A DNA stretch of 53,739 nucleotides, counting the filler, from Dirinaria sp. TL-2023a (taxonomy: Eukaryota), in assembly GCA_051941275.1 (NCBI GenBank). It is 4 parts of 4 records of this genome, joined end to end, with 100 filler letters (N's around TTAATTAATTAA, not from the genome) between each part and the next. Parts side by side here need not be neighbours in the genome. Positions count along the whole stretch, not along the records: positions 26,925 to 40,282 come from JAVEBF010000696.1; 3 more parts are not named here. One strand, written 5' to 3'. The position numbers were made by a program, and so were the translations under genes. The notes under the pieces were generated by a model. That model was not told the origin of the DNA. It worked only from the letters and a program-made list of their open reading frames with translations, and ran no database searches. This document shows, piece after piece, positions 8,363-43,192 of this stretch (its first letter is position 1; every line of letters begins with the position of its first letter).

Positions 8363-9339
8363 GGTGGCGATTCCTAAAACCCGGGTCTGCACGTTTAAAC
8401 GGAAGGAGGGCGTTGGGCCCGTTGGCTGGATCTGGAACGCGTTTGAATGGTCACGGGAACCGCGTAGTCCTGACTTGGATACCTCACTTTATACCTTACC
8501 AGCTCTACAACTCTGCTTCAATGGGGACGTATGAGGGTATAGCTACAGTAGTATGATGATGCGATAGAGTCTTCTGGAGAGGGTATAGAAGCCTCAGATC
8601 AGCTTCAGTAGATGTCCATCAGCTTCCGTCATCTGTAGACGAAAGTGGTGAGATATTTAGTTGTCAGATGCCAAAACTAGAGTACCGTAATGTAGTTTGT
8701 GCATAGTCAGGTCGATTTGAATTTCAATCTACTATCTACATATTCTGTACTCGTACCTTAAGGGATCAGGGACGAGTACCGCAGGGACGAGTACCCCAGG
8801 GGCTGAGGGGCTTACCTAAAAGACCAACGAACGATGAGGCTCTTGACCATACCTTAGACCAACCCCCCCAGCTCCCCCACGCTCCCTCCGACTCTCCCCC
8901 GGTCGTCGATCTCATCTTGCGAGCATTAGCCTCTTGCCAAGCTGTGCTAGACCGCTTTCGTGGTCATCGTGTGCTTCGTACCTTGGCTGGGCTTGGCTGA
9001 CTCAAAAGTTACCTCAAAACCAAAAATGTTGTAAAGTGTTAAGTGACGGTTTTTCCCAATTCGATGATCCTGCCCGAACTGACGCGTTCGCCAACATGAG
9101 CAATTCTGGCGCGTCCTCCAAGCAAGGTGTTAAAGACCTAGCGACCTCCCGCCACCCCAATGTTTGTCAACAACAACCCACTTACCATCATCTGCGACTT
9201 CTCACCATCTACCTTCTCACCTTCGACAACCTTCTACATCGCTACTGCCTTCGCCTTCTGTATTCTCAAGCTCATCACCTACACTTCTGCACTTGATCGC
9301 ACCCTTCCACGTCGCCGTCTCGCTGTCGCGGCAGGCGCG

Positions 9340-19737: not shown

Positions 19738-22700
19738 ATGTCGTCCTCACCTCGCCATCACCTGCGGCGGCAGTCAATACCTCTGCAAGACCTTTCGCGT
19801 CCGCCAGACACTCCAATTGAGGATGATGGTGGTGGTGGAGGCAATAGAAGCCGTTCTTTGGGAAGGAAAAGGTCTCTTCTGGGAAACAGGCAGGCATTTC
19901 GAGGGACAGTGAACACTTCTGGCAGATATGAGCGAGTCCTGGAAGGGTCTCCTGACAGGGCGAATGCTCATACACCACACGTCACTACGCCGAGGAATGT
20001 ACACCAGCCCATACCGTACGACGACGGCGAAGTGTCTCCCGTTAATCCTGGAGACTTTCAGGCGGCAGTGGGCTCTGTGGGCTTGAGCTTTGACTCCAGC
20101 GGCCCGTCAAGATCGCCAGCGCCATCTTCCCAAGCAAGCGGTCGAAGACGAAGTACCCTGAATGTGATAACAGAGGACCATCCGCCGTTTGGAGCATCAA
20201 TCACGAGGACGGACACAGAAGAGAATTACTTTTCGCCCACCGAAAACGATACAACTCCTTTGACGGATACTCGCTTCCTACAGCCTATGAGCGGAGTACC
20301 AGCGTCCGCCTCTTCCGGCCAAAGACACGATAGATCGATGTCACGACTAGGTGATGATTTACCCAATCTAGAGGCTGGGCTTAGACCTTCTTCGACGTAC
20401 AGTGCAAAGTCGTTGAGCAGATCGCTGTCCGTTTCGGGGTCGGCTTCGCCACTGTTACGAGCAGGGACTATCATGCGGAAAATGTCACAGCGTGTAGTCA
20501 ATCTCAGTAACGAGCCAGAGATCGTTGAACAGAGCATACGGCGGCAACCATCGCGGGATGCCAGGCTAGAAGCGCCACCCTCGTTCCCAGCCTATATCGA
20601 GTACGGCAATGATGAAGCCGAGAATGCATTCTCACCCCTCGAAAAGTCTCGGTCTAACGTCGTCGCTGTTGGCCAGGAGCCAGTCGCCTTCAAGCAACAA
20701 CCCAATCCTTTGAAAGGGAAAAGCTTGGGGATTTTTCCGCCGGACAATTGGATAAGGTTACGATTATGTGAAATGCTAGTACATCCTTTAACGGAGCCAA
20801 TTATTCTAATGCTTATATTTATACAAACTCTTCTTCTCGCCATTGATTCGGCACCAAAACTGGCACTAGGCAAGAGGCCGAAAGTATGGGGTCACTCGTG
20901 GATTGACTTTGCGTTGGTGGTTCTTTTCACTATTTACAGCCTGGAGATTATCGCACGCGTCATCGTCTCCGGGTTTATCAAGAATGCCGAGGAATACAGC
21001 ACGGTTGACTGGGACTTGGGCATCAAACAAGCCATAATTGACCGGTGCATGACTTTTTTTGTACCTCAGAGGCAACAGCAAATCTCTGGCAAGAAAGCTG
21101 TAACCTCAGCCGATCCTGCAGCATCAGTTTTGAAAACTTTTACCAGGACTCAGGAACAGATGGATCAACCGGGACACACCCGGCAACAACAGCGCGTAAG
21201 GCTCGCTCGGAGAGCTTTTCTACGTCACGGGTTCAATCGGCTTGATTTCGTGGCCGTTGTCTCTTTCTGGGTCTCATTCATTCTTGACTTATTACAGATC
21301 GAGTATCGCCACCACATTTACGTATTTCGCATGCTGAGCTGTCTTCGAATATTGAGGTTACTGGGTCTGACCAAGGGTACTTCGGTACACTTCCCACCTA
21401 GTTTATTGGCCTCCACTTTAAGATATGGGCCTGACGCTAACGTACAACCAGGTCATCCTACGAAGTCTCAAGCGAGCAGCTCCGCTACTTGTCAATGTGG
21501 CTTTTCTCATCGGGTTCTTCTGGCTATTGTTCGCTATAGTGGGCGTTCAGAGTTTTTATTCATCCTTCCGGCGATCCTGTGTTTGGTACGAGGACATCGC
21601 GAACGTGCGTACGAACCGGCTGCTGCAAAACAACTTCGCGCAAAACGTTGCGCCCAACAACTTCCAGCCGTGTGGTGGCTATCTAAATGCCACAACAGGA
21701 CGGCCATGGCCATGGCTCAAGGCTGACTTATCCAATGGAACTGACTCCCATAAGGGCTACCTATGCCCGAAGAATTCGCTTTGCGTGGAAGGGTCTAATC
21801 CCTATAACGGTACCGTTAGCTTTGATAATGTTCTGAACTCACTGCAGCTCGTTTTTGTCATAATGAGTTCCAATACCTTTTCCGATCTGCTCTATTACAC
21901 CATGGACAGCGACTTTCTGGCTTCAGCTCTATTCTTCGCTTTTGGAATAGTTATTATGAGTCTTTGGTTGATGAACTTACTCGTCGCAGTCATCACCTCC
22001 TCGTTTCAAGTCATTCGAGAAGAAAGTAAAACTAGTGCGTTTACTGCAGACGAGGAGCCAGTTCGGCTGCTGGACGAGCAAGAAGAACCCGAACAGACAA
22101 TGAAAGTCCCAACACTCAAACGCCTCTATAAAAAGACATACTGGTTGTGGATAATCATTATTGTCTTCGATCTTGTAGTGCAAGCTCTCCGAAGCGCAAA
22201 CATGAGCTCGAGCCGCAGAAAGTTCATCGACGAAACTGAGACTGCCGTTACACTTGTGCTGGTCGTGGAAATTTTACTTCGATTTCTTTGCGACTGGCGG
22301 AACTTCCATACAAGCCCACGTAACTGGATTGACCTGGGTCTAGCCGTAATCACAGCCATAATACAGCTCCCGTCGATACATGGATCTGGGCAACCCTACG
22401 CTTGGCTGACTTTCTTCCAAATTGTTCGGATATACCGTGTTGTACTCGCTGTGTCGCTCACACGCCGATTGATTGTTAGACCATTCTGACCGCTGAAGGA
22501 GAGCCTATTGCTAATCATTCTTATAGCTGACCGTCCTCGGCAACGTCACTGGTCTACTGAACCTAGTGGTGTTTGTATTCCTCATCACGTTCCTCACGGC
22601 AATTTTTGCTGTTCAGATATTCCGAGGTCAATTCCCACCGGAAGACAGTCAACAGGATACTATCAACGTAACTTTCTCGGATATTTTCAATTCATTCATA

Positions 22701-25700
22701 GGAATGTACCAGGTCTTGTCCAGCGAGAACTGGACGATTCTAATGTATAACGCGACATCTTACGAGTACGAGTGGCAGACGTCCTGGATTGGAGCGACTT
22801 TCTTCGTTCTTTGGTTCATCCTAGCTAATTTCATTGTGTTGAATATGTTCATTGCAGTCATTCAAGAAAACTTCGACGTTACTGAAGACGAGAAGCGCTT
22901 GGAGCAGGTAAAGGCTTTCCTACACCAGAAAGAGCTTAGTGGCTCTTCGCATGGCATTCTTTCACTATCGACTATCTTTCGACTTGGTCGTGACCGTGAG
23001 CGCCGTAGAGATCCTCTCGACTATGGGCCTGCGACAATGGATATGCTTACGAAAGACGCCGTTGTGCGGGATTTCTTGGACGAACAACTAGATCCGACAG
23101 ACGACTCTACAGCGGATAGTGTTACTAACAAAGGTGACACGATGAGCTCAGTTAAAACTGGAGTGCTGTCAGCTGCATGGGGCAAGCTTTGCGCCTTCGT
23201 GGGCAAACGGGAGCCAAACCCTTTCTACTCACGATTCAAATTCTCCCGTGCCAAAGATGAGCTAGATCCACGCACAATGGCCAGAGAAGTCGTGTCTGCA
23301 CAAGAGCAACGAAAACGTGCTCAGCGCCAGTACTTACTGAAGCATCCAACCTACAATGTATCCTTGTTCATGTTTCGTCCGGGTCATCCCTTGCGGAGAT
23401 TTTGCCAACGTATTGTCGGCCCTGGGCGAGGCAGTCAACGCATAGAAGGTGTAGATCCGCTTAAACCTGTTTGGTATTCGTTCTCGGCTGTCATCTACGC
23501 CACGATTGTCGCCATGGTTTTGCTAGCCTGCATATCAACACCACTTTATCAGAAGGAGTATTTCGAGGCCCATTCGCCGTCTAACAACCCAACACACAAT
23601 TGGCGCGTATACGCCGGTAATTGGTTCGTGTGGACCGATGCGGCCTTCGCGGTCGTATTTACGATTGAGGCCGTCATCAAGGTCATTGCCGATGGCTTCT
23701 TCTGGACTCCCAATGCCTACTTTAGAGGTTCTTGGGGCTTCATCGATGGCCTGGTCCTTGTCACCCTCTGGATCAATGTCGGAGCTTCTCTCTCCTCAGA
23801 TGGTAGCGTATCGCGTGCAGTGGGCGCTTTCAAAGCTTTGAGGGCTCTGAGACTCCTCAACGTTAGTGACAGCGCAAGGGATACATTTCATTCGGTCATT
23901 ATCTTGGGCGGTTGGAAAGTTGTCTCAGTAAGTTCGCCATCGCTTTCTTGTATTGATGACATACTGAATGAATCTAGGCGGCATTCGTCTCTCTAAGTCT
24001 ATTGATACCCTTCGCCATATACGGTCTCAATCTCTTCAATGGACAGATGCTTAATTGCAACGACGGCTCTATTAGCAACTTGACGGAGTGTGTAGGCGAA
24101 TACAACAGTTCCCCGTATGGTTGGGAGGTCCTCGCACCAAGGCAAGTTGCTAACCCGTATTACAATTTTGACGAGTTTGGGAGCTCGCTTTCCATCCTTT
24201 TCCAGATCGTGTCGCAGGAAGGCTGGACCGATGTCATGTTCAGCGCGATGTCCGCCGCCGGCGTCGGGAACAATCCTCAGCCATTTAGTTCTCAGGGCAA
24301 TGCTGTGTTCTTTATTATCTTCAATCTGCTTGGAGCAGTCTTCGTGCTCACGCTATTTGTCTCTGTGTTCATGCGGAACTATACAGAGCAGACTGGAGTT
24401 GCCTTCCTGACAGCTGAACAGCGGTCATGGCTCGAGTTACGCAAATTGCTGCGACAAATCTCACCTTCCAAACGTCCATCTCAGAAGACTGAGAGGGAAT
24501 GGCGGCTGTGGTGTTATAGGATCGCAGTCAAGAAACATGGCAAGTGGCAAAGATTCATGACCGGAATCTTGTTCCTCCATCTGGTTCTACTGCTGCTCGA
24601 GTTCTATCCGGAAAACCACACCTGGGAGCTCACAAGAGGCAAGTGTGTGTTGCATATGTTTTGATCATTGAACGCTAACATTTGTAGATTGGTTCTTCGT
24701 GGCTTTCACTCTTGTCTACATTGCCAACAATATGATTCGAATAGCCGGCTTAACATGGACAAGATTTAGGAGAAGCTCGTGGGACCTCTACTCCCTTTTT
24801 ACCGTCACCGGCACTGTGATCACCACCTTGCTCCATCTCGCTGCACCTCATGACAGCCTCTATAAGCAACTGCAAAAGTATTTCCTTGTCTCTATCGCTC
24901 TTTTAATAATTCCGCGCAACAACCAATTGGACCAGCTATTCAAGACCGCCGCAGCTAGTTTTACGGCCATCGCTAATTTGTTAGCAACTTGGTTTGTGCT
25001 CTTCCTGGTTTACGCCATTGCCTTGACCCAAACCTTCGGCTTGACAAGATTTGGAAGTAACGAGACTGGGAACAAGAACTTTCGCAACGTTCCCAAAGCA
25101 CTCATCCTGCTGTTTCGCATGAGTTGTGGCGAAGGATGGAATCAAATCATGGAAGATTTCGCAACGATAACCCCGCCTAATTGTGTCTTGGTTGATGGTA
25201 ACTTCTTTGGAAGTGACTGCGGCAGCGCAGCGTGGGCTCGAACCCTATTCATTTCATGGAACATACTAAGCATGTACATCTTTGTGAGCTTGTTTGTCTC
25301 GCTCATCTTCGAGAGCTTTTCGTACGTGTATCAAAGAAGCAGCGGCATGTTCGTGCTCAGTCGCGACGAGATCAGAAGGTTCAAGCAGGCGTGGGCGACT
25401 TACGATCCGGACGGCACCGGTTATATTTCCAAGGATGTCTTTCCTCGATTACTTGGAGTAAGTCAAAATCGCATTGAAATTTTCGTTAGCAGCTAAGCAT
25501 TTTAGGAACTCTCTGGTGTTTTCGAAATGCGTATCTATAAGGACGAACACACGGTGTACAGTATTCTCCATGACTGCGTTGTCGAGACAAGAGGCACCGA
25601 AACCCCACCACCTGGTGTCGTACATGGTGTCGATCTGGCACGCCTTAATGACCGTATAAGGACCATCGACGTTGCTGACATTCGCCGGCGAAAGAGGCGG

Positions 25701-26510
25701 TTAGAGCTCTTCTTTCAGGAAGTGATGGTTCATGCGCCTCAAGATCGAGGTGTTGATTTTAGTGCCTGCCTGATGATCTTGGCCCACCATAACATCATTT
25801 CCGACAGCAAAAGCTTGAGGCTTGAAGAGTTCCTTCGACGCCGTGCGCGCCTTCAACGTGTAGAAGAGGAAGTAAATCGCCGCATCGTCAGAGGCTTTTT
25901 CGACACAATGTTCTGGAGTCGCCAATTCCGGTCCAGACTCGATCTCCGACACTCAGCTCGGATGACTGCGGTCCCACAGTTCGCGGTGCCCGAAATATTT
26001 GTCGACGATCAGAATGTTGTATCCCCGCAAGACAGCGAATTCTCTCCTCAGGCGTTGACAAGACCCGGCTCCATGCCGACAGAGGAGAGCAGAGGCCGGC
26101 AATCTGTTCAAGATCCAGAGAGTGGTGGCTTGCGTCGGCGTAACGAGTCGCGAGGCCCATCACCGTCGCGTTCCGATAGAAGCTACAGCGTCAGTCCGCA
26201 ACATTCGCCGCAGCGGCCGTCACTTTCCGTTGGTAGACAGTCCCTATCCGTACACAGACCATCGCATTCCGGTAGGAGTAGCGCAGGCGGCAGCAGCGGC
26301 TTCCAGTGGACCTTGGATGACACCTCTGATCTAGGCAACGCACGCCCGGTAAACCGCAGCAGAGCAGCGAGCTCGGTCAGCAGGCAAGACGTGCTGCAAG
26401 TGTTTGATGAAAGTGCATGGGGAGAGAGTATCCGGAGAAGCTTCACGCTCGGGAGAAACGCAACGCGAAGGAGGCGCGGAGGGAGTTCGTCGGGGGGCGG
26501 CGGAATCTAA
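19738..26510 (+). CDS. CCH1: High-affinity Ca2+ channel subunit Cch1 (four-domain voltage-gated channel family); introns 21385-21451, 22475-22526, 23928-23977, 24639-24687 (GC-AG), 25458-25505
   Basis: Four 6TM repeats with S4-like RILRLL, RIYRVV, KALRALRLL; pore motifs MSSNTF, SSENW, SQEGW, CGEGW (N-E-E-E); C-terminal EF-hand-like YDPDGTGYIS. All exon joins are in frame. Confidence 0.95.
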
Positions 26511-26924: not shown

Positions 26925-26981
26925 TGCCGGATGAAATTAGTGCTCATACCCAACCAGCTGAATCATGAAGCCAGCACTTAC

Positions 26982-27532
26982 TGTGCGAAGCCGATCACTC
27001 ATTGCGCCTCGGACTGTGTCGTAGATGTCACCTGAGATACGCTTGACACCGCCTCGACGCGCCAAGCGACTGATATAAGATGTCAGTTATAAGAAACCCT
27101 TCATTCCAAGATCTAGAGAAAGGATATACCGGATGTCTCCCTTCGCTGTAATAGATGAGAGATCAGCACTCAAGCTCTAGGTACGCAAGGAATCAGCGAC
27201 GCGACTCACTGATGCCTTGTATCGAGTCTCTGACAATCTTCCTGCAGCTGCACGTCAGTCTTGTTCCTTTCCATCTGATCCACGCTTGTTCTCCACTTTG
27301 AGGAGCGGTAGCGTAATTGATCTTCAGACCTTGATTTGCATCGGCTTTGCCAGGTGTGGATGGATGTCTTATCCATCCGCACTGCCTTGAGCCTTGCCTC
27401 AGTCTGATCAACTCACCGGTGACGCTTGAATCCACCTTTGCCTAACCCCTTTCCCCCACTCCCCACCTTCCCTGAACGTGAAGGTGCCGAGGATGTTGGC
27501 TGGGCATTCCAGCTCGGGAAGATCTTCTTCAT
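26982..27532 (-). CDS. Divergent histone H4 variant, 3'-truncated by the contig end; exons 27532-27417, 27241-27210, 27145-27130, 27069-26982
   Basis: Spliced product [84 protein letters not shown]|. It aligns by eye to H4 ([42 protein letters not shown]). All introns are GT-AG and phase-consistent. Confidence 0.9.
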
Positions 27533-27645
27533 TGTTGCGGAGTGGAGCCAAGAGGTCTGTTGATATTGAAGTGTTTACGAAGTGGGTTTAGGTTTGGCGG
27601 GCGAGAAGTGGTTTAGCTTCAGGTGGGGTGGGATGAGATGGGTCG

Positions 27646-27658
27646 ACGCGTGACGCGC
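27646..27658. promoter_or_regulatory. Tandem MCB-like boxes (ACGCGT, ACGCGC) ~115 bp upstream of the H4-variant start
   Basis: gtcgACGCGTgACGCGCag; ACGCGT is the fungal MBF (G1/S) element. Motif match only. Confidence 0.4.
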
Positions 27659-27964
27659 AGAGGGTGGTGGGGGTGTGGGGTTCACTCATGAGGAAAATGG
27701 ATGAATTCTAGCAACGAGATTCTGGAGAGCAAGACTTGGTCGTAATGTCCCTTTTTTGATTTGCGTGGAGGCTACATGATCTCTACACGCATGCTCCGTC
27801 AACAAGAATTTGCTTTTCCCTTACCCATCATCCCCTAATTGTGGTCGATCGAAGAAAGTCGACAGAAGAAATTCCTACATAAGAACGAACCATCACAGAA
27901 CAAATACGTGGCTTGCCCTAGGTCTTCCTGAGCCTAGATTGGAAGCTTGGTTTTCAGATCTAAC

Positions 27965-29474
27965 CTAGCGTCGGATATGAGGATGTCCAAGTTGTCGGAT
28001 GTGAGCCCGCCTTATCTTGGAGCTGCTACTGCACTTCCCAAAGGCTGACTGGCACCCAGTGCCGCAGTAGTCCTCCGAGGTGCCGCAATATCCATGCGAG
28101 GAACAGCACATGCCCGTTGCGCAGCTGAGCCCGCCGTTGCTTCCGCAAGTATCGACCGAGCCTCCGCTATTTCCAGAAGATGAGGATGGGGAGGAGGATT
28201 TGGGGGATGAATAGGCCATCGGGCTGGCTGCCGGAGCTGAAGCCATTGGCGCTGGAGAGGAGTCATCAGATGTTTTCCCGGACGAAGACGCCGTCACACC
28301 CGGGCTGCTGAGCATGGAAGGCTTGGCCGGCATGTAGCTTGCTGCGGACGGAGGGCCCTTGGCGCTACCTTTGCAGGAAGCTTGGACACTGTCGCAGTAA
28401 TCCTCCCAGTTGTGGCAATTTTTGCTGCCTGTGGGACCGGCAGAATCGTAACAAGTCTTCGCTTGCGCCCAGCAATTCGAAGACGCCTTCCAACACGCGT
28501 CGGCGTCGGAGTAGCTGGGCAGCGTCATACCGCACCAATTATCGTTTTCCATGATACAGCCAGCGGGCTTGAGGCCGATGGTCTGCTCAGCCGGGGAATC
28601 GCGAACATCGAGATCGCGCTTGGAGCTGCCGGTGTAGGTTGGAGGGCCAAATTGTGGGAAAGGCAACTTCATAGGCTGATTCCAGATATTGAAAGTCATA
28701 GCTGGGTCGGTCATATGGACATAGCCTGGAATGGAGACTGTGTCTTTGGGCGCCGCTGTGCCGGTCGACTTTAAGAAGATCTGAGCACAACCGACGTAGA
28801 ATTGCGGATCCGGTGGGCTCTTATCAGCTTGGTGCAAGGCGAGGAGCTCGGGGCGCACCAGGTAGTATCCCCCGGCAAGGTCTTTCGGTATGTTGACAGA
28901 TAGGTGACCATCGTTGGGAATCAGTTTCTCGGTACACCATTTACCAGCGGCGCTGTCATAATCCTCTTCGAAGATCTTGAACCATCCATCTCCGGTTGCG
29001 GTATCGGTGACGGCGTTGTCAACCTTCTTCATGTAGACCGAGCAAGGACCCTTATGGCTGGTGTCGATGGAGCCTGGCTGGCTTCCATCAGGCCAGTCAC
29101 GCCACTCAAACGTCAGCTGAGAGCCTGCATTAGCTGGGCAAACACGAGCAACGCCGCTTTGGCCATTGACGCCTGGTCGATATATTAGCGAGTTACCTCA
29201 TAGGATGTGGGGGCTTGAAACAAGCAAAACCGTTGGGCAACAGCTTTTGCATGCGGAGGGCAGCAGACGTACCACATGCCATGTCATTGCTGGTAACGGC
29301 TCCGATGGGTCGAATAGGAAATGTGGCTTGGTCAATGTTATCGCTCATGCGAACGCAGGTACCGTCGCCTTGAGGGACATTATCGACGAAAAAGTTAGTA
29401 AAAGCTGTGTGAGCGTTGACGGCCCCAGTAGCAGCAATGACTAGCAGCACGCTGCTAATACCAGGAAGGTACAT
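27965..29474 (-). CDS. Secreted AA9 lytic polysaccharide monooxygenase + Cys-rich module + Ser/Pro linker + CBM18 (hevein-like chitin-binding); intron 29272-29173
   Basis: Signal peptide MYLPGISSVLLVIAATGAVNA followed by His1 (HTAF), second His in SHKGP, ELLALH...PQFYVGCAQI motif; C-terminal CGSNGGLSCATGMCCSSHGYCGTSEDYCGTGCQSAFGKC has the CBM18 cysteine pattern. Confidence 0.9.
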
Positions 29475-30753
29475 GGTAGCTAATATCTCTGACAACGGAT
29501 TCGGTAGGGTTTGCTGAGAATCGCTCAATGCACGAGCTTGACGGTCTAGAAATGAGCGTGTGGCAAGTCAATGCCAGGCAAATGAATGTATGATCAGATC
29601 ACAGATCTTGTCGGTGGAAGAGTTCGTCGAACTCTGGAGCTCCCAGAAGTTTAGTTTTGTTTGGGGGACGCGAGTATTTGTGTTGATAGTAACAAATGGT
29701 AAACACAGGCGATTCTCCCAGTCAATGTTGAAGCAGGTGACAAATGAGTGTAAATATCCTTCAAGGATAGTAAAGCAAAGGAATGTAACAGAGCGAGAAT
29801 TCTTCACAGAGCACCTACGTTGTACAAAGCAAGGTACAAGAAGGAAAAAAAAGGAAGACGCTTCATTATTTTAGAGTACGGAGTAGGAGTACTTGAGATG
29901 CGGAGAAGCACGGGTTGCGTTTACCCCCTGGCCCACCCACTCTTAGCCAGCTCACACTGCGTCCAAAGGATCGTCCGGTAACCAGCCTGTTCCTGAACCT
30001 GCATCCTGGTTTTGAGGCCTTACCTTAGTGCAAGGTTTCTTGGGGCATGCTTTTTAGCTGCGCAAGCCGATCAGATTCGCTCGCTTCCGAATGCTCTCTG
30101 GAGGAGAAGAGATGAAAGGACGCAGTCGGTTGGATGGGAGGGGCGAAGCTTAGCACCATTTGATCCAGATAGAACACACGCCAATCAAGTAGCGATGTCG
30201 ATGGTCTGCTTGTTGCTCTCCGGCACCACCGGGGCGGCGTTTCGAAACGTTCTAAAGGGCGCCAAATTGTAAGGAGTCGCGAGTCCATCGAGTGGTTTCC
30301 GGACCCCTGCTTCTCGCTTTACTTGCCTACCCGGGAATCCGAAATTCCGTCTAATGCACTTACTGTACTCGTATGTACATAAGGTAGGTGAAGGACTTAA
30401 GTAAGGTATGTACGAGGGTACCGATGTACGCAGCCCTTACTTTTACCTTGAACCATCTCAAAGGTCCGTGTCCTTTTGCATCATGAAGATGCACGGAAAC
30501 TACTGTACTGTAGACTCTACAAGAGCTGCAATGCCACGTACGAGGTGGGATTTTCATGACTAATAGCTATGAGAGTTCTGAAGATTCGCGGGATGGTTGA
30601 GCTACTTGTTTGCAGGGCTCCTGATATTCGTCAGATGGTGAGGGATCAGCTACTTAAGTGCCAACGATGACGAGAAGTATTCTCAGTATTCGTTCTCACA
30701 ACGAGCTTTTCATGTTTCATACTACCTACCTACATATACAGTTTCAGGATCCC

Positions 30754-32355
30754 CTACGTGCTTCCAGGTCCACCAAGCAATGCAAATCTTCTTACGATAC
30801 CTATTCACAATCAGCATTTGCTCCCAGTAGTGCAGCCTGGGTGCAACATCATGATGGAAGCCCTGAAGGAATACTTACTCGGCCCGATCTCATCGTACTC
30901 TGCTTTTGTATGGCAGTAACTCCTGAATTCAGGGGTCTGCCCTAATAAACTGCCTCCGAACCACGGTCCATGTCGTTGTCTCTTATGACTAATAACTTGT
31001 ACCTCCAGACCTCCGCTTCTCGCGCCTCCACTTCGCGCTTCTGAAGCGCGGATACGGTCATCGACGAGGTGTTTTATATCTCTCTGTAATCGTCTCCCAA
31101 AGTCTCGGTATAGCGTTGAGCCGCCGGACAAAACAATGTTCTTGTAAAGACCTCTGCGAACGTCAATCGGACTCTGCTGAATCACTCCATCAACAACGGT
31201 AGGTAGAGGAGTCAGGAAGTCACTCGAGTAAATTTCTGGGTTAAAGAAAATCTCGGGCGCGAGAAAGCGCTCGTATCCAACGTCTACGCTTAAAGTCCGC
31301 CCGTTCGACTGCTTGATGGTATGCTTCATGAACCGATTGGGCTCTTTATCAAACTTCGCAAACTCCTTCACCATGTCTGGACACACGTAGCAATACTCCT
31401 CTTTCACCCGCTCTGCCGTCTTGAGCGAACTGTCCGGCTCGCCTCGATCCCTCAGCAAAGACTGAACGAAATACGTGATATCTCGCCCAGCGATAGGTAT
31501 CGATTTAATGCTGCTGCCTATAACGTACCCCTCAGCAACTGGAATGACATGCGTGACACCATCGCCACTGTCGATGACGGTGCCGGTGAGAGAGCGGTCA
31601 GAGACTTTGGAGGAGGTCCATGAAGCGGCGAGCGCGAGGACAGCTTGCACAGCAATGTACAAGCCAGCGCAGTTGAAGGATTCGAACATGATCTCAGCGG
31701 TATTTTCCCGGTTTTCCGGCGGGTTGAGTGGGGGCTCTGTAAGGAGAAAGTAGTGATCTTCGGGTTCGACGCGCAGGTACTTGAATATGCTATTGGACCA
31801 GAAACGCTCCATGTGGTCCTAGTGGTGTTAGTGCGTCCATCATTCAAAGATTTTAGCATTCCAATGTACCCAGTTCTCCACCTGGCCATGCCGTACAGGG
31901 TAGTGCAAGCCATAGCCTTGCCTCTGTCAGCATTTGAATCGCTCTGTCATTGAATTTGACCCGTCGTACCAGGACCTGCAGCAGCTGTCACTGCTTCATC
32001 TCCAATGAAAAAATCTAGATCCTCAGTCCCCCTCTTCGCTGATAGATTACTTCCACTTGCGCCTCCAGTGAGAAATGATGGCTTGTTCGCTACGGCAGGC
32101 CGCCCCGAACCAGAGCCTCCGGTGCCTCCGACTCCGCCTTTCGTAGCTATTGCGGTGGGGAAGACGAAGGAAGGAGAATCGTTGCCGGCGAATCCTTACA
32201 GCCATCAGTCAAGTCTCACTGCAAATGTTGCAAGGGGTGACCAAACGTACCTAGCTTAGAGAAGCCAGTTCCACTATTTACATGTTAGCTGGGCTGCATT
32301 GTTTTTGGGAAACTCCGTACTTGTCAATGACAACGGCTGGCGTCTGGTTTGCCAT
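30754..32355 (-). CDS. ARP3: Actin-related protein 3 (Arp2/3 complex), multi-exon
   Basis: [36 protein letters not shown]..., [41 protein letters not shown], last exon [14 protein letters not shown]. Confidence 0.96.
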
Positions 32356-32605
32356 GAGCGCATGAAAAGAAAGGAGAGCGCTCCGATGCAGTCACAATAT
32401 AAATCTTCCGTCTTCTAAGCCATGTCAGAAGTGGGGACTTTTTACAAAGTTGCCTGGAAGTGGTACGAGTACCATAGCCGCGCGGTGGACCCTCGGCAAA
32501 ACCTTGTTGCGGCGCAAACTTCATGAAAAATCAAAATCTTGAGGTTCTTATGCGTACTGCAACAACCAGCTGGCAAGCGTCATCAGTCCTTCGAGTGCAG
32601 CAGAG

Positions 32606-33076
32606 ATGAGTGTATTATGACTAGTAACTCATTATGCGGATTACAAACTAATAAGGTTCTAGTTCGTACCGCTGAATCCGCGGCCTATGCTACAGTCACT
32701 GTACTTCTATCCTCCCGAGTCATGGATATGTATGCTTACAGCCACTGCAGAGTCAATGACGAAGTCATAGTGCGACTGAAATGGGGTCAGACGGAATATA
32801 AGGGAAGATTGATCAGCGTGGACTCTTATATGAACATTCAATTGGCGAACACCGAGGAGTTCATTGACGGGAAGAGCACCGGGGCATTGGGCCAAGTGCT
32901 GATACGGTTTGTCATCTTCAATACCCTGTGCCATGCGCATTTGAAAGACGAAAATGGATATCCGAATTCTGAGAGATTCATGGCTGATGTTTGGGCTCGA
33001 AAACAGGTGTAACAATGTACTATGGATATCTGGCGCAAAAGGGGCGAAGCAGGAAGATGCAGATATGCAGGGATGA
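32606..33076 (+). CDS. SMF: Small nuclear ribonucleoprotein F (SmF), multi-exon, divergent from ARP3
   Basis: [89 protein letters not shown]; Sm1 and Sm2 motifs. Confidence 0.93.
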
Positions 33077-33689
33077 AAGTGATAACCAAAACACGTTTAC
33101 ACTGGGGCCTAAGAGTTTGCAAGAGAGTGACCATAGCATGGGGCTCCCTAAACTATTCTTGGCGAGCAACAACTCGAGCCGCCAATCTAATCTATCAGAA
33201 CTGTCCAGCTACGATTGTTAGACAGCATCCCGAAGAAAGCAGTGATAACTGGCTGGGCTACTGTGAACATAGTCCTAGGCTTGTAAATACCTTTTAAAGA
33301 CCCAAAATCAAGTCAAAAGCGAAATTTCATACCTGTTCTCACACATTGAAGACATGGGTCTTCAAGTAGTCCATAAAGGTGTGTTCTTTGGATCATATTA
33401 TTCGAAAGTTCTCCTGAATTTTCCTCGGGGCAAAAGTCACGTGCCAGCGCGTGGGTAAAATTGCGCTAAGAACACCCCCGCGCGTCTACTGCACGACAGT
33501 ATTTCGTCCCAGCCTCCCTGGCTCCCTTCATTCTCTTTCCCTTTCTACACACCACACTTTGCGCGCCTCTTCAGCAATTTTCGCTCAATGAACTTCAATG
33601 GGATATGTCATAATCAACTCTGACCCGACCAATAGCTGCAAACTAACTCGCCAACTTCCACAGCCCCCGAAGTCCAAATACTCGATGGC

Positions 33690-36121
33690 AGTGCATCTTC
33701 TTGACCCGGTTCCTCTCCCCTTCCGATCTCTCGCTCTTCAGGAGCACTACACAGAAAAAGCAGCGCACCTTCCCCACAGTCTCCCGAAGCTCATCTTCCG
33801 GCCTCGCGCAGGAATGTTTCAACGCCCCTCGCACACACCTGCGGCTCAATTCTAGGCGTCATTTCTCGAGCCTCATGGCACGGTCTCACATGAAATTTGG
33901 CAAGTCTAAATTGCGTACGCTGCGAATCGAAAGCTTCGTAAAGGGTAGTGCGAGGAGGATGAGTTTCGGAACTTAACCCTAAGTTTTCGTCGGTCTTCGT
34001 CTCGCGTTCATAGCTGTCAAGATCCTTATTAGCTTTTCCGTGTTCTCATCCTTCTACCTTAGCTCTAGATGGGGAGACGAGGAGGAGTGAAAGGGACCTC
34101 TGACGTCCAGAGTCTTTTAGACGGTGATTGAACGTTCTATGCGCCGGAATTGGTCAGACCTCCTTTGGAGGCGCGCGTCAGTCTGTTCTACTGGACATCA
34201 TGCTCTAGTCATTTATGGATTTTTTGTTGATGCAAAGCGTCGTGCAGCCAAATTGGAAGACAGCAGGTGGAATATGTCAGACACCTTTACATGAGGACCG
34301 TCTTTGGGAGCCCTGAAAAGCTGGTCATTGCAGGCGACTTTGTGGATCTTGTTGTGGATCTTCTTTTCTTTGCGAAGCCGATTATGATTCTTTTCTGCGT
34401 CGTCGAGCGCAGGCGGTTTCCGCCTTCCACCATTCCTCGCACTGCACTGCTAGTGTTTTCTCAAGAGCCCATTCTGTTATTTGGGCGTACCTAGGGCTAA
34501 GAGCATGTTGGAGTGCTCAGCACACTTGCCTACATACGGGCCGTTAGATTCTGTATGCTTCAGGCTTAGGCATAAGTCGTAGCCAAAGCGGAGATCCATT
34601 CGCCGGCACCTGTGTCTGCACAGACACCGCAATGTCTCTAATCCAGAATGCAAAGCGAGGTCTCTTAGCGCACAACAGAGGTTTACAAGGACTACGGCTG
34701 CTCCGCTTGTCTCTATTGTCACAGATAGGACAACGCAGAGTTCTTGGCACAGCATCACGCTCTTCGAGGCCCCAAGTCGCTTAGAAAGCAAATGAGCATT
34801 GAGGAAACGCGAAACAGCTGTCGTGGTCAACGGATGGCTTTATCGTCTGCATCAACACTCTTCGCTTCTCCAGAATGTGGATCGGCCGAGCAAGGGACTG
34901 GCTTTTAGCTATCAAGATAGACACTGTGGTCTGTTTGGCCAGCAAGCTGTCCCGTACCTATTCCCTACACATAGTGCCCATCGCTGGCAATGGAACCTGC
35001 TGTCCAATCCTCACTGGACCCTGCTCGCTCACCAAAACTGCATCACGGCACCCGCCACAGGTGCAGAAGGCTTGCCTTGTTCCGACTAGACGCGTTAGTC
35101 ACCTCCTTGTATGCACGTCATACAAGACGACTGGTGAGCGCCGACTTCTCATCCTGCTATCAGCCTCTGGGTTGGTGGCAGGATACACATACCTCCCGCG
35201 TGGAGATGGAAGCGGTTTTTGAGGATGTTTTTTGTCCGCTTACAATGCCTTCCGCTGCTTTTGCCGTTTTGGCGATATTGGTGGAAAGGAAACAAAGACT
35301 AGTCTCTGAGGGTACTGCACTACATTCAGAGAGGTTATCTTTCCCAACTGGGGTTTTGGGGGGAGAGACTTCAAGATGAAACGCTCGAGCTGAGGGCAAA
35401 TGTTTCGGAAGGTTGTGAGTGGTCAGGAGTTTCACTGGTGGAAGGACGGTCAGTAACTCTGAGGAACCATATGCAACTGAACAAGTTGATGGGGGGCGCT
35501 TGAGGCATTGCAAGTGTGGTGTCAACCTCTTGCACGAAAGCCCGCTGGCAATGCAACAGAGCTATAGTGCCAGCCTCCTCCTAGCTGACTCCGGAGCTAT
35601 TGCAGTCTTCCAGCTCTAAGGCATCCAGCCCCCAGAGTCTTCCTTTTCCCATCACTGCTTCCGGTCTCAGTTTGGCCCTCATCAATCGAAGTCACAGTGC
35701 CTTCTACTGCGTTTACCGGGTTGGGCCGAGCTGAGGCCTATCAGCCCCAGAGACAGGACCTCTCTCGAGTGAGGATCAAAGCTTAGTGCTTGTCTGCTCT
35801 CTCGGCTGCCCTCCGCGAAACCCTGCCCGGTGCTGCAGTCTCGGTCTCTGAGCCGGGTGACTGATGGGGCTGTTAGGCTGCGACCGGTGAGGAGCGGGTC
35901 AAAGGGATATTTGGCGGCAAGGACGATGCGTATAGAGTAAGATGGCTGGGACGATGCTAGGTGAGATTGGTATTGAATTGACGTTGCGTTGGGCCATAGG
36001 CGGGTGGACGTGGGAGGTGATGGTGTGATTGAGCTTGGGTGGGGAAGCAGCGGTGGAGGCGGTACAAGAGGGCCACTGTCCTTGCTTAATGAGGAGGATG
36101 GTGGCTCTACCAAATTTTTTT
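33690..36121 (+). ncRNA. TER: Putative telomerase RNA (TER), ~2.4 kb; 5' end approximate
   Basis: Template TAACCCTAA at 33974-33982 (1.5 TTAGGG repeats) preceded by hairpin gagtt-tcgg-aactt; nested 5'/3' pairings (33769-77:36039-47, 33787-93:36030-36, 33820-25:35986-91, 33846-52:35975-81); further long helices; 3' end AAATTTTTTT|ATAGGT...GCTAAC...CAG; no credible ORF over 2.4 kb. Confidence 0.8.
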
Positions 36122-36172
36122 ATAGGTGTTCCTTGTATACTTTGTTCCAAGAGATGGCTAACTACATACCAG
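36112..36172 (+). other. Putative TER 3'-processing signal: Sm-like U-tract (36112-36121), non-canonical 5' splice site ATAGGT (36122-36127), branch point GCTAAC (36157-36162), 3' splice site CAG (36170-36172)
   Basis: Read directly; 51-nt intron-sized spacing. An A-initiated 5' splice site is the known cleavage signal of Neurospora/Aspergillus TERs. Confidence 0.72.
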
Positions 36173-36811
36173 ATATGACTTGCTGATGAAGCCGAAAGGC
36201 ATGGTTGATTACAAAAGTATCTCGGGACGGTGGATGTCACCTGCTTGGATTGCGGCCTTCAAAAAGGTACAGCGATTGACGTAAAATCCTAGCTACCCTA
36301 CGCCTTCGAGTACTGTCTTGCAGATGTCGTCCAATTGAGACAGTACGTAATTACGTATGAGCTACCTTATTCCTATGCCTGATGTCAGCTGACCAGGTGC
36401 ACTCCGACTATCGGAGTCGTATGCAATAGCTAAATTACTAAGGTGAATTTTTCATTGGTGGCTTTGGAGCTGTTTATTCGATTGGTATCCGAGACTTCTA
36501 CGGACATGTGAAATCTGCAGTAGATCAAGATCGGTGGTGCCAGGCCGGATACCGCTGCTGTTTCCGGCCTAAGGTACCTTAGTAAAGGTAGTAGGCACTT
36601 CTTTGTTCTGGTGACTGGTGAGTCAGATTACCTTATCTAATCTCAAACCCCACCAAAATGCACACAGCGTAACCACCCAGACATCTACTTCACCTAAAGT
36701 TCTTTAGAGGCAAGGTGCCTTATTTCTTGGTTGAATCAAGGCTCTTTCACGAAAGATATCCCTGCAATCTTGGGTGCTCCGTTGAGAACAAGTTTCGTCG
36801 TCTCCTAAAAC

Positions 36812-39280
36812 ATGGCACCATTGAAAACCTCTCCTGAACGACCCAGTTCTCAGTCCGTGCGGAAAACACGCAGCCAAGGTTCCTTCTATTCAACCTCTCC
36901 CCTCGCTCAAGCTGCCGTAGCTCGGGACCTTGAGGCAGAAGCGAGTGGAGATGTCGAGAACGCTCTTCAGGACGAAGATGGAGAGGATTCCTCTGATTCA
37001 GACACCCTCCGCCGCATCGGGAGTGGACAATCGTATGGTTGCTCCATGGTAGGCTCGTACAGAAGACCTAGCTTTACGGCGGGAGGCACAAGAGCCACAG
37101 TTGGCACAGGCTTGCGAGGATCAAGTAGGCCAGCAACCAAGAGCGAAAGAATTGAAGCTCGAAGGGAGGAACGGAGCTTATTGAGAGATAACAATGTGAT
37201 ACCGCCAAAGCATCCACAGAAAGGTCAGGGCGCGCACTCCTTTACCCGTCGTATCGGCCAGATGTTGCCTGCAGTCGGAGTGCCAGGTGGAGACCGAATG
37301 GTCCAGTCAGGGGACCAGGAGATAATACAAGATCCATCTCGTGAGCCTGCAGAGACGGCACCTTTACTGGGGAACCCAGAACTGCCGTATGGTGGCCAAG
37401 ACTCTCCAGAGAACATTGACAAGAGATGGGAGGAAGCCGTGTTGGAGGGTAGAATAAAGACAACATGGCAGCGAGAGGCCAAGGTCCTCGGGCGGTACTC
37501 GGCCCCTCTCATCCTGACTTTCTTGTTGCAGTACTCCCTGATCGTGGTAAGTACCGTCTTTGTTGGCATTTCGTCTTTCGTCTTCCAGCTATATCTTGAG
37601 CCGCAAGAGATAGCCCTGGGGTCACACTCACAGTATACAAAGTGCAAAATGCGGATGCTGCTTCCAAAAATGACGCTGACGCTCAACTTTCAAGACCAGT
37701 GTTTTCGTTGTAGGTCATATAGGTAAAAGTGAGCTTGCGGCGGTGAGTCTAGCCGGCATGTCTGCAAATATCTTTGGTTATGCCATATATCAGGGGCTGG
37801 CAACCAGTCTTGATACGCTTTGTGCTCAAGCGTATGGATCGGGACACAAGAAACTCGTTGGCTTGCAAATGCAGCGGATGGTGTACTTCTTATGGGTTGT
37901 GACAATACCAATAATCATCATCTGGCTTAGTGCCGAGCGTATTCTGATGAGGATTGTGCCTGAAAAAGAAGTAGCGCGTAAGAGTCACATTTTGTCTCCT
38001 TGGTTATTACCGGTATTGATTTGCTCTCAGAACTTGCTGGTCGTTATCTAAAAATCATCACCATTGGCGCACCTGGCTATGCGTGCTTCGAATCTGGGAA
38101 GCGATTCCTGCAAGCCCAGGGCTTATTCTTCGCTTCTCTTTATGTCTTGTTAATTTGCGCTCCGCTAAATGCCTTGATGAATTGGCTGTTTGTCTGGGTA
38201 CATCTCCCTCCTTCGCTAGCATTTATTCCGACCTGTGCTTGGCTTACTCTTTCCGTCTAGCAATTCGGTTGGGGTTTTATCGGGGCGCCGATTGCTGTCA
38301 CAATTACTGAAATTCTGGTTCGTGTTCTGGTCATTCTCTTGTCTGCTTATCTCAAATGTACTTGTGAAACGCAATGGTGGAATGCTGATTTAGGAGAGCC
38401 TTTTCAATGTTCCGACCATTGAAAATCATATGCTGACCTGGAAGGACCAATGAAGTTACCTACCTTCCTTGCCCTCTATGTTCGATTCATCGCGGGTCGT
38501 GCTTGTTGGCCAGGGCTCAGCCGTCGCGCTTTGCAGAATTGGGGACCTATGATCAAACTCGCTCTACCGGGCTTCCTTATGGTCGAAGCTGAGTATTTCG
38601 CATTCGAGATACTGACCCTTGCGTCGAGCTACTTCGGTACCACGCACCTTGCAGCTCAAAGCGTACTGAGTACCATCCTCGGCATCACCTTCTGCTTTCC
38701 ATTCCCGGTAAGTATTGCTGGTAGCACACGGATCGCCAACCTCATTGGCGCAACGCTTTCCGATGCTGCGAAAACGAGCGCCAAAGTCACACTAGGAACA
38801 GCTGCCTGCGTTGGCGCATGCAATTGTATAATTATATCAAGTTTGCGGCTCCATCTTCCACAGCTCTTCACAAGCGATCCGGAGGTCATTGCTTTGGTCG
38901 GGAAGATCCTACCCATATGCGCAGCTTTCATGCTTTTCGATGCTTTGGCAGCGAATTGCAATGGTATTCTTCGTGGCTTAGGTAGGCAAGAGATTGGCGG
39001 CTGGGTTCAGCTGTTCTCCTATTATGCAGTAGCGATGCCGATAAGCATGGGAACAGCCTTTGGTCTGGGCTGGGAGTTGCAAGGTTTGTGGAGCGGTGTC
39101 GCGATTGCTCTGGCTCTGTGAGTCCCAAAGTTTCCTTCTCGCATATCCTATTGCTGCCTTGAGACCACTCCACTTATCTTCAACTCGATTAGGGTGGCTT
39201 TCATCGAAGCGACTTTCCTCTACCGTACGAGCTGGGAAAGATCCGTTGAGGAAGCCAAGGCAAGGAATGCGATTTCGTAG
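36812..39280 (+). CDS. MATE-family efflux transporter (Erc1-like), multi-exon
   Basis: [10 protein letters not shown]...[78 protein letters not shown]; last exon ends ...[10 protein letters not shown] at 39280. Confidence 0.93.
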
Positions 39281-39431
39281 ACTTTATTCGGAATGGCTGC
39301 CGAGCGTCTGCCATTTTCCTACAGGGGCATATATTCGAGCGCAAGAGATCTCTTTCGCTGTGCGTCGATATTTGCACGTCCGCATCTCTCATAACGCGTG
39401 AGCCAGGACCTTGACAGGATTTGGATTGCTC

Positions 39432-40052
39432 TCATCTTTGCGATTTGGCATTCGTAGCGAGAAACAGCACACAGGCAGCAACAATCGCAGTTGCCACGAT
39501 CGTAAAAACCTGCATCCCTAATTAGCCCTCTCCAATTCTTTCTCCTCGTCCGTCCCTTGTGGAGACACTACTTACAACCTGCGTCTTCCATCCGCTCTGC
39601 ACGAGCGCCTGTCGCCGGCTATACCTCGTCACGGTTTTGATGTAATTCGCAAGCCCGCTCACCAGACATGCCAGACTGAGAAGCCAGAAGACCAAACCAA
39701 ACGGCAGCGCGAATCTTCTCTCCATCGATGTAGGTTGAGACTTGAGGTGGAAAGAGATCATGATGGCAACGGACACAACGGCCATATAGATCGAAAGGCG
39801 CAACCAGGAAAGGAAGGTGCGTTCGTTCGCGCAGTGGTCCCGGGCGTCAGAAGTCTCATTGGGAAAGAGAAGCGGGGTGAAGAAGGGAGGACGGAGGAAG
39901 AGGTGGGAGGAAGCGGAGCTGGCAACGGTATCAGTACAACAGAGATGCGCAATCTAGAAGGGGGCAATCTGCACTTACTGATCTATGTGTACGGGTTCAG
40001 TGCGAAAAGGATTGATGATCCAGGATGACCTTGGATTTGCGGACCCCTCCAT
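39432..40052 (-). CDS. DUF202 membrane protein, 3 exons
   Basis: MEGSANPRSSWIINPFRTEPVHIDH|SASSHLFLRPPFFTPLLFPNETSDARDHCANERTFLSWLRLS... (ANERTFLSW signature), three hydrophobic segments, last exon VFTIVATAIVAACVLFLATNAKSQR*. Confidence 0.85.
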
Positions 40053-40282
40053 CGCAAGGTTTGTGAGTTGGGATCCAAGCACCGCGCTGGTGTCAGGAGG
40101 CGCACGCCGGGGTGAAAAGGATACCTCCAGGAATAAGTGAAAGATGTCGTCTTCTCTGATGGAATGGTGGTCTCAGGTCTAATAAGCCACAGTATCATAC
40201 ATTACTGTACCTTACTTAAGGTACCTTAGGTAAGGTACCTTCTATGTGCCTAGATAGTAGATTACCCTAAAAACGTGGGGCG

Positions 40283-40382
40283 NNNNNNNNNNNNNNNNNN
40301 NNNNNNNNNNNNNNNNNNNNNNNNNNTTAATTAATTAANNNNNNNNNNNNNNNNNNNNNNNNNNNNNNNNNNNNNNNNNNNN
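40283..40382. other. Artificial contig-joining linker
   Basis: N44-TTAATTAATTAA-N44. Confidence 0.98.
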
Positions 40383-43192
40383 GCGCCCGGCTGTCCAAGC
40401 ACCTTGCCACCACCCTCCTCGTCGTAACTGCTCGACTGGCCTATTTCACGATTTACCTCCGCTTTCGGTGTCGATGCGCCGAAGCTTTTCAATGTGACCG
40501 TGCTTGCATTCACGCCCTCGTCGCCTAGATTCTGGCCGAGTTTGAAGGGGAATGTTTTCAGGCCTGCGGTCGCGGGACGGTTGGTGTTGAGGAGGTGCAC
40601 GGGGGCGGGATTGTGGTGGCCATCAGGTGTATTTGCAGTGGCTGTAGGAGGGTTGCTGATCTCATCCTTGGGGTCGCGTGCTGCTCCGAGGGGATGACGG
40701 GAGGTGTGTTCTTCGTCGCGGCGGCGGAGGAGTTCGACTGCCGGGGTATTCTCATCGATGTCGTTGTCGTTATCATCTTCGGTTGTGGATTGGCCCGTAT
40801 CGCTGACGACCCTCCTCCTGGATCTCGAGCGCGAATGAGCTCCAACATGGGACTTCAACGCTTCTTCAGGCATCGCCCCCGTCGTGGTGGGCGTCGCGGC
40901 TGTGGTCGCAACCTCCTTGTCCGCCTTCTCTTCCCGCTCCATGGTGCTTTCGTCGTGCTTACTGCCCCACATGCCCCAGAGAGTCAGGCCCCAACTTCGC
41001 TTCTTCGCGCTCTCTTTCTCCATGCCCAGGCCCCTTCGCCCTGCCAATGCGCTTGGCGGCGGGACTTCGTCGTCGCCGAAGCCTTGATAGCCTTTCGCCA
41101 TTTCTTTGATGCGCTGTTTTTGCACGCGGCGCTTTTCCCGCGCGAATTTGCTGTCCCACTCTTGCTTCGCTGCAAGCCATTTCTTGACTGGCCCTGGCTT
41201 GATGACTCCGATTTCGTTGGGGGAGATATTGAGTGCGGCTATGTTGGAGGGGTGGTCAAGAGGGAAGATGTTGCCGTGGCGATCGACACGTTGGCGGATC
41301 ATATGGTTGCGGAATGGCGGGAGTGGAGCGCCTGCTTTTCCTACTGATCCCGTGGCCACCGTTCCTTTGCTCGAAGTGACACCGTTCGTCGGAATATGGT
41401 CGGTTTTAGCGGACACCGTTGTAGTTGAGGAGCCGGTATCTGAGCCTGAGGATATCATTGATACCTCATCATCGTCCATTATTTCGATATCCGTTTTTTG
41501 GGCTCGAGCGAGCGCCCATGCACCGAATTGGGCTATGGAGCGGAACATATACTTTGCAGGGCGTGTGAAGGAGAGCGTAGGCGCGACGTGGCAGAGGTCA
41601 TCCCAGACTTGAAGCTGTACGTCGGTGGGCTTGTACTTGGTTATTAACTCTTTAGCCTCGGGATGCTCATCAAGGTAGGCTTCACTTGGAGGATATCTGG
41701 AAGGGTTGGCAGCCTTGTGTGCAAGGTAGATTTGCTCGTCACGGAGGAGCTCACCGCCACCAGTAAGTATTAGGAGAGGAGGGAGGCCGCCGAGAGAGGG
41801 AGACAGGACCGGTGAGACAAGTGGATGCGATATCAATTGGTTCGTGGCGTACATCTGAATCTGGTCTTTGATATGGACCAATTTGCCGTCAATCATGATG
41901 GATAGGTCATGACCAGGTCCAGGTATTGTATTGCCAGGCCGCTCACCCGCGCCTTTGGAGCCGGCTGGGTTATTAGTATTTTGGACTGGATTAAGATGCT
42001 GTGGATCGTGTTCTTCGGAGAATCCTCGAACAGCATCTTGCTGAGCTTTATGGCGCTCGTGCTGGGATGATTTCCTGGGCATGCCATCTCCAACGACCTT
42101 CTCAATCGCGTGGAAGGCTATATTTTCAATGTCGTCCGCATTGGGAGGTGGCCAAGAGGGTGATGGACGCTGCATGAAACCATGAGCAGGTATATAGTCG
42201 TAGCGCCCATCACCGGCTAGAGAGGGAAAGGAGTGAGTGAGGTCCACCCAAGGAGAGATTAGGATTGCACCGGCTGGCAGAGGAAGTCCTTGATCACGGA
42301 GGGTCACTAGCATACTGCAAACAGTCAGTTCAACCCAAGAGCTGAGATGCCAGGAGTAAACTACCTCACAATCATGCCGCCTCCGGCCGAGTCGCCAGCT
42401 AATAGTATGGTTGACGGGTCTTGCTCTGTAAGCAGGTATAGATAGGTTGCTAAGCAATCGTGGAGGCCGCAGGGAAACGGGAATTGAGGAGCTAACTGAT
42501 AACGTGCTATACAGCGTCAATACTTGCCGAACCTCTCACTATTCCCCAATACTCACTGCAACCGATCAGCGTGGGCAGCACTCAGCTTTCCTGTCTAACT
42601 CACCGCGCTAATACCCTAGCCTCCAACTTTCTCGCGTGTCTTTGCAACTGATACCGATGCTCATCCACGCTCCCCAGGAAATAGGCTCCACCATGCACAT
42701 ACAGCATGACCCGTTTGCATTTCTCCCCATCGCGCTTCCTCTTCGCATGATGCGCTCTCATCTCGATCCATTCCGCTTTTAGTACACTGCCTTCTCTTCG
42801 CCATTGCCACCACTTCTCTCCTCCGACCTGATTTACACCCTTGTGACCCAACTGTGCGATCAACGTATCAGCAGACTTGCTTATGTACTTTTCCGGTATT
42901 ACAATTTCGTCGACCTTCACCCAGCGCGGGACTGGCACCCATTGGGAAGTGAAAGCTTGAACCTCTTCCACAGTGTGATAGGACGCGTAATGGAGGAATT
43001 GACGGATCAAAAGAAGACCTTCGTGGTACGATATGTGTGCCGTAGGTTTTTGGCGGAGAGGTTTGCGATTGAGGTACTGCTTGCTGTCAGCGCAGCGATA
43101 TGACTAGACATGTTTAAGTGTACATGGGAAAAGTAGGTTTCTATAACCACTGGGGCTACTGCAGCACAGACAGAGATGGTGTTGAGCACCAT
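40383..43192 (-). CDS. Alpha/beta hydrolase, hormone-sensitive-lipase family (lipase/esterase), multi-exon, C-terminus runs off the contig
   Basis: [23 protein letters not shown] start, LYVHGGAY oxyanion motif, AGDSAGGG read at ~42375-42400, [24 protein letters not shown]. Confidence 0.9.

Follow-up and report, generated by a model that had tools for sequence, protein, structure and literature searches.

How is the 3′ end of a fungal telomerase RNA (TER) made when the intron-like element at its end begins with an A instead of a G? The question is raised by a locus of Dirinaria sp. TL-2023a (assembly GCA_051941275.1) in a stretch of 53,739 nucleotides, filler included, which was analysed in its entirety and is called the window below; the part that carries the locus (positions 26,925 to 40,282) derives from JAVEBF010000696.1. 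The first-pass annotation had read positions 36112-36172 as a 3′ end generated by spliceosomal cleavage. This reading is supported, as layout and spacing are those of other fungal TER loci and of the published Aspergillus TERs. We put at about 80% the probability that a Pezizomycotina telomerase RNA gene has its 3′-end processing module at 36112-36172 (+ strand) and that this module acts through the first splicing step. The motifs are present, they are placed in a TER gene, and they follow a layout common to other TER loci. From this we infer cleavage, the exact end of the RNA and the binding of proteins.

The identity of the gene is the foundation. An Rfam scan of the whole window returned a single match above the gathering score, RF02462, the Ascomycota telomerase RNA, and this core element is the anchor of all that follows. 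The RF02462 model comprises 1858 positions and was matched only in parts; a more permissive Rfam scan yielded a second island, colinear with the core. For comparison, 15 TER loci were taken from metagenome contigs by a conserved core pattern, a pattern which gave 0 loci in prokaryote genome contigs, as expected for a fungal RNA. When the window was compared by blastn with these independent loci, exactly three colinear islands emerged: the template region, the core and the element at 35.75 kb. The first of them, 33963-34013, has its aligned counterpart in the template regions of those loci and contains the template TAACCCTAA. The partners of the last one, 35746-35791, are the colinear parts of five loci (L001, L004, L007, L008 and L010). 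In 12 of the 15 metagenome loci TAACCCTAA is located 794-921 nt upstream of the core, against 1239 nt in the window. Between ~33300 and 36800 the listed open reading frames of at least 80 aa are just short mechanical ones, and two minus-strand frames which run across the module site matched 0 Pfam families. Judged by its sequence, the region upstream of the module belongs to a telomerase RNA gene of the Pezizomycotina type, encoded on the + strand.

Two RNA runs from one lichen-metagenome sample hold 7% of words, and the contigs assembled from them originate from a relative which is ~95% identical. These RNA-library contigs cover 33607-35312 in pieces and resume from 36612 onward, which leaves 35313-36611, and with it the module, uncovered; contigs of this kind are not proof of transcription. 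The ascomycete may be lichen-associated, the only ground for this being the minor fraction of words shared with a single RNA study of a lichen metagenome. A placement by protein comparison reached no further than Ascomycota. One contig, 33607-33855, also from the ~95% identical relative, is positioned 120-370 nt upstream of the template; it may mark a TER 5′ end that far upstream or a run-on of the transcript of the neighbouring gene for Sm protein F. The Aspergillus promoter motif CRCGDCGCG occurred 46 times against 44 expected, and no + strand match was located upstream of the template. A scan for bacterial-type promoters and terminators stayed at chance level and is irrelevant to a eukaryote.

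The gene for Sm protein F (SmF) is located at ~32606-33077 (+), about 0.9 kb upstream of the TER template and on the same strand. In its product Pfam recognises an LSM domain (E 6.7e-15), and the best solved relatives are annotated 'Sm protein F' (E 3.5e-24). In fission yeast, Sm proteins bind the RNA ends of the spliceosomal-cleavage type. The adjacency of SmF and TER is curious but probably coincidental, as the 15 metagenome TER loci do not have it (0 tblastn matches). The three SmF introns (32612-33010, +), delimited by eye against the expected protein, start with GTATTA, GTACTT and GTTTGT, i.e., two of three are devoid of a G at +5, which suggests a relaxed use of 5′ splice sites in this genome. 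Further away, a row of long same-strand open reading frames with Ion_trans matches (19726-26510, +) looks like one large multi-intron cation-channel gene; a Ulp1-type protease is encoded at 9142-13197, 27968-29197 (-) codes for an AA9 enzyme that carries a chitin-binding module, and an actin-family gene is located at 30814-31818 (-).

The module itself shares its strand with the TER core, from which it is ~0.9 kb downstream (core+909); the template is ~2.15 kb before it. Re-reading of the sequence showed that the motif coordinates of the first-pass annotation were all exact to the base and that the putative A-first intron is 51 nt long. All features are collected in Table 1.

Table 1. Positions along the window of the elements of the telomerase RNA gene and of its putative 3′-end module.
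Feature	Position	Strand	Remark
Template TAACCCTAA	33974..33982	+	Would direct TTAGGG repeats; in island 33963-34013
TER core element (RF02462 model positions 1195-1381)	35147..35304	+	47.4 bits (E 1.2e-10; gathering score 30); anchor
Second TER island (RF02462 model positions 1645-1690)	35746..35791	+	26.1 bits, E 2.9e-05; alone below the gathering score
Terminal hairpin, 18 predicted pairs	36069..36108	+	From the predicted fold; just before the U-tract
U-tract AAATTTTTTT (A3U7)	36112-36121	+	Directly before ATAGGT; read from the sequence
AAAUUUUUUU, Sm/Lsm-like U-tract, where the cleaved RNA is predicted to end (3′)	36112..36121	+	Left unpaired by the fold prediction
Non-canonical 5′ splice site AUAGGU (ATAGGT), A at +1	36122..36127	+	Fits the AUANGU of known TER introns
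51-nt AU...AG intron, first splicing step only (predicted)	36122..36172	+	Metagenome TER introns 47-53 nt; mechanism inferred from Kannan 2015
Branch site GCUAACU (GCTAAC 36157-36162), branch A 36161	36157..36163	+	Identical to the Aspergillus consensus
3′ splice site CAG	36170..36172	+	11 nt past the branch A

AUAGGU has an A at +1 and otherwise follows the consensus (AUANGU); GCUAACU and CAG are set at the ordinary short spacing of a small intron. The AAAU7 stretch directly upstream of the 5′ site is a U-rich, Sm/Lsm-like element and is predicted to be single-stranded. Read in order, the module consists of the hairpin, the predicted single-stranded ACCAAAUUUUUUU, AUAGGU, GCUAACU and CAG. The predicted fold of 35960-36121 has -51.9 kcal/mol (z -2.61), and 2 of 200 shuffled sequences were equally stable. 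The pair of branch A and CAG, 36161/36172, is the sole one of its kind within 35900-36300, and the plausible 5′ sites in its range are only two, 36122 and its own +5 GU. The GT at 36126, whose use in splicing the first-pass annotation had named as an outcome that would refute it, is nothing else than positions +5/+6 of the hexamer ATAGGT itself.

How typical is this arrangement? Four of the 15 metagenome loci have fewer than 600 nt downstream of the core and were set aside. Nine of the 11 usable ones possess exactly one A-first module, located at core+540 to +560 (6 distinct sequences). In these nine the layout is shared: a long hairpin, a U-containing stretch, ATAAGT, a pyrimidine-rich spacer, GCTAAC or GCTAAT, and CAG/TAG. 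Their introns are 47-53 nt long, compared to 51 nt in the window, and a hairpin of 12-13 bp precedes the 5′ splice site in 6/6 of the distinct modules. Position +4 is where the window departs: in the nine metagenome modules (G in 0/9) and in the Aspergillus sites described it is A or C, never G. The two usable loci without a module, L004 and L011, are on contigs which end at core+834 and core+838, respectively. Their second island, like that of the window, is at ~+555. The window's module follows 365 nt beyond this island; the two contigs probably stop before the expected position.

The six distinct 3′ modules of the metagenome loci served to build a covariance model, R1. Run over the whole window with default filters it missed the site and gave only one unrelated match (25150-25213, E 0.43); with the filters off and limited to 33000-37500 it listed the site (36056-36172) with 9.2 bits and E 0.087 as the third of 6 weak matches. 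R1 is too lineage-specific to decide for or against the site. An Rfam scan of 35780-36200 with E up to 10 produced a chance snoZ242 match only and no match to a TER 3′ end.

If the module operates as proposed, the precursor would be transcribed through 36112-36172, and the spliceosome would recognise AUAGGU, GCUAACU and CAG and carry out the first transesterification at 36121/36122. The second step would be blocked because the intron begins with A while the 3′ site ends with G: the A at +1 would fail in the contact between first and last base with the G of CAG, as has been argued for Aspergillus. As a consequence of this block the 5′ exon would be released as telomerase RNA. It would end in the U7 tract which follows the 18-bp terminal hairpin, or be trimmed a few bases into it, and this U-rich end is predicted as a likely landing site for Sm and/or Lsm2-8. 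Kannan 2015 (PMC4299874) describes an experimental analogue. An A. niger sequence placed in an S. pombe TER1 context gave cleaved RNA which ended within the U-rich site after trimming, and a spliced product was barely detectable; upon an A1G exchange in this construct the cleaved form went down more than ten-fold and spliced RNA became dominant. The mature end in the window would be at ~36121 or, with equal probability, some bases upstream of it, given the trimmed ends seen with the A. niger construct.

That AUAGGU supports the first step is an assumption, and it is here that the most durable alternative enters. AUAGGU might fail in step 1, in which case the 3′ end would be formed by termination or polyadenylation followed by exonucleolytic trimming up to a protein-bound U-tract and the hairpin. 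What an A at +1 does varies with its surroundings: among S. pombe GUAUGU contexts, those tested showed a block of step 1 or of all splicing, according to the same paper (PMC4299874). Further, a G at +4 is without precedent in the loci and literature examined, and a hairpin plus a U-tract alone could halt an exonuclease. Yet this alternative leaves unexplained why a perfect GCUAACU and a CAG should be present at the usual spacing and in the usual place, forming a 51-nt unit like those of nine TER loci. Also, position +4 seems tolerant, as AUAAGU and AUACGU are each either functional or conserved. AUAGGU is but a small step away because +4 already varies, with AUACGU in A. nidulans and AUA(A/C)GU in the Aspergillus TERs described. 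We regard a failure of step 1 as unlikely.

The G at +4 has a second implication. It creates an exon-like AG/GU junction, and the GU at 36126-36127 might be used as a normal G-first 5′ site which pairs with the same branch site and CAG (36161/36172); a 47-nt intron would then be fully removed, and the mature end would not, or only partly, be made there. The sequence UAG/GUGUUC matches at -2A, -1G, +1G, +2U and +3G, matches which are absent from AUAAGU sites, and loose 5′ sites seem to be tolerated in this genome if the SmF introns, delimited by eye, are a guide. On the other hand, neither +5G nor +6U is present in GUGUUC, while AUAGGU agrees with a normal GUAGGU site at +2 to +6. A GU at +5/+6 is a property of every AUAAGU-type TER site, and the A. 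niger construct nevertheless gave hardly any spliced product (PMC4299874). Moreover, full splicing would leave a hairpin and a U7 tract at this site without a reason. Some full splicing from 36126 may occur, because the +4 G makes an AG/GU and the genome seems to use loose sites; as the explanation of the locus it is very unlikely.

One may go further and combine both sites. In this joint proposal the +4 G creates two overlapping sites which together set the output of TER, and the U7 tract, devoid of an Sm-type G, might also let the RNA bypass the Sm step, with direct loading of Lsm2-8. If true, the A-first site at 36122 would give the cleaved, functional RNA and the AG/GU site at 36126 a fully spliced, non-functional one. 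We consider this very improbable.

The probability of a fortuitous co-occurrence of the motifs was assessed with 200 first-order Markov simulations of the window as the null. A strict module was defined as ATA.GT, 15-60 nt, GCTAAC, 3-30 nt and YAG, a relaxed one as ATA.GT...CTRAY...YAG. On both strands of the window the strict module occurs twice, at 36122 and 42442, compared to a simulated mean of 0.30 and a maximum of 2. When at least 5 T directly upstream are demanded, 36122 is the only one left, and such a module appeared in 0/200 simulated windows. The relaxed module is at chance level (19 observed, 21.6 expected), and weight is therefore given to the strict motif, to the U-tract and above all to the position 3′ of the TER core; exactly one relaxed module is found within 2288 nt downstream of the core, the one at core+909. 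Module counts per hexamer, i.e., by intron position +4, were at chance level and uninformative, as was a heuristic joining of open reading frames for +4 statistics, whose 72 candidates left many 5′ sites to choose from for a given 3′ site. The second exact ATAGGT...GCTAAC...CAG, at 42442, is part of 42427-42520 (+), opposite to a long open reading frame with an alpha/beta-hydrolase match (40331-42535, -); by eye it is inside an ordinary-looking intron which starts with GTAAGC ~15 nt upstream, and hence borrows the branch and 3′ signals of this intron. That the element at 36122 is a mere coincidence, or an intron unrelated to TER in the 5′ leader of the gene that follows downstream (ATG 36812), is hardly credible: the chance frequency of the relaxed motif, the second exact copy and the start of this gene's RNA contigs near 36612 could be cited in its favor, but the simulations did not reproduce the strict motif with its U-tract, position and layout agree with other TER loci, an mRNA leader would not lose an A-first intron by splicing, and the second copy is accounted for by the normal intron around it.

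What, then, does the putative cleavage module at 36112-36172 add? Its mechanism, a U-tract without G and variation at +4 are all already published. New is an instance of TER from an ascomycete which is maybe lichen-associated, together with the G at +4. In the literature searched, 'AUAGGU' and 'telomerase' were not mentioned together; nor were 'telomerase RNA' and 'Lecanoromycetes'. From the module no new mechanism emerges, and no old question is opened by it. For a seemingly lichen-associated ascomycete it annotates the telomerase RNA gene and shows where the RNA probably ends (3′). The A-first 5′ sites which fungi use for half-splicing gain a further +4 variant, G, a data point for freedom of variation at this position of the cleavage site. 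Cloning work and telomerase studies in this group can make practical use of the RNA end so defined.

According to reviews, all known filamentous-fungal TERs are processed by spliceosomal cleavage (PMC4993307; PMC10003056); their source on Neurospora is Qi et al. 2015. The fission yeast TER1 (Box et al., 2008, as described in PMC4299874) uses a canonical GUAUGU, a strong branch site and a long distance from the branch to the 3′ site. The window does not resemble this type, as its first intron base is A and the distance from branch to 3′ site is 11 nt. Because of this 11-nt distance and the A-first site it is grouped with the Aspergillus/Neurospora type and not with S. pombe. Introns of the U12-type AT-AC class have a 5′ site AUAUCCUU and an AC terminus. 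The element here does not fit this class, as it reads AUAGGUGU and ends with CAG.

The Neurospora crassa type has an A-first site of the AUAAGU class, to which the site in the window is akin, and this class of 5′ site reportedly blocks the second splicing step. The six distinct ATAAGT modules from metagenomes look like the Neurospora type. They carry CUCUUUU(G/C)GRGG ahead of the 5′ site, whereas the window has a pure U7 tract.

The Aspergillus TERs are among the closest known matches. In 13 Aspergilli the 3′ end has a U-rich site, CGGC3-5U7-12, whose C3-5U7-12 tract is without a G; the yeast Sm consensus is quoted as AU5-6GR; the 5′ site is AUAAGU, with AUACGU for A. nidulans, and the branch site GCUAACU, as described by Kuprys 2013 (PMC3603654). 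AUA(A/C)GU is the corresponding notation for the Aspergillus 5′ sites in Kannan 2015 (PMC4299874). The lack of the terminal G in the U-tract, which the first-pass annotation had considered as possibly lineage-specific, is thus nothing special. There are differences: the window has G at +4 where Aspergillus has A (C in A. nidulans), its tract is AAAU7 after ACC instead of CGGC3-5U7-12, and it is known from sequence alone. Common to both are a G-less U-rich tract directly before an A-first AUANGU, an identical branch site GCUAACU, a short way from there to YAG, and the position of the whole module at the end of a TER of the 1.5-2.4-kb class with a TTAGGG-type template.
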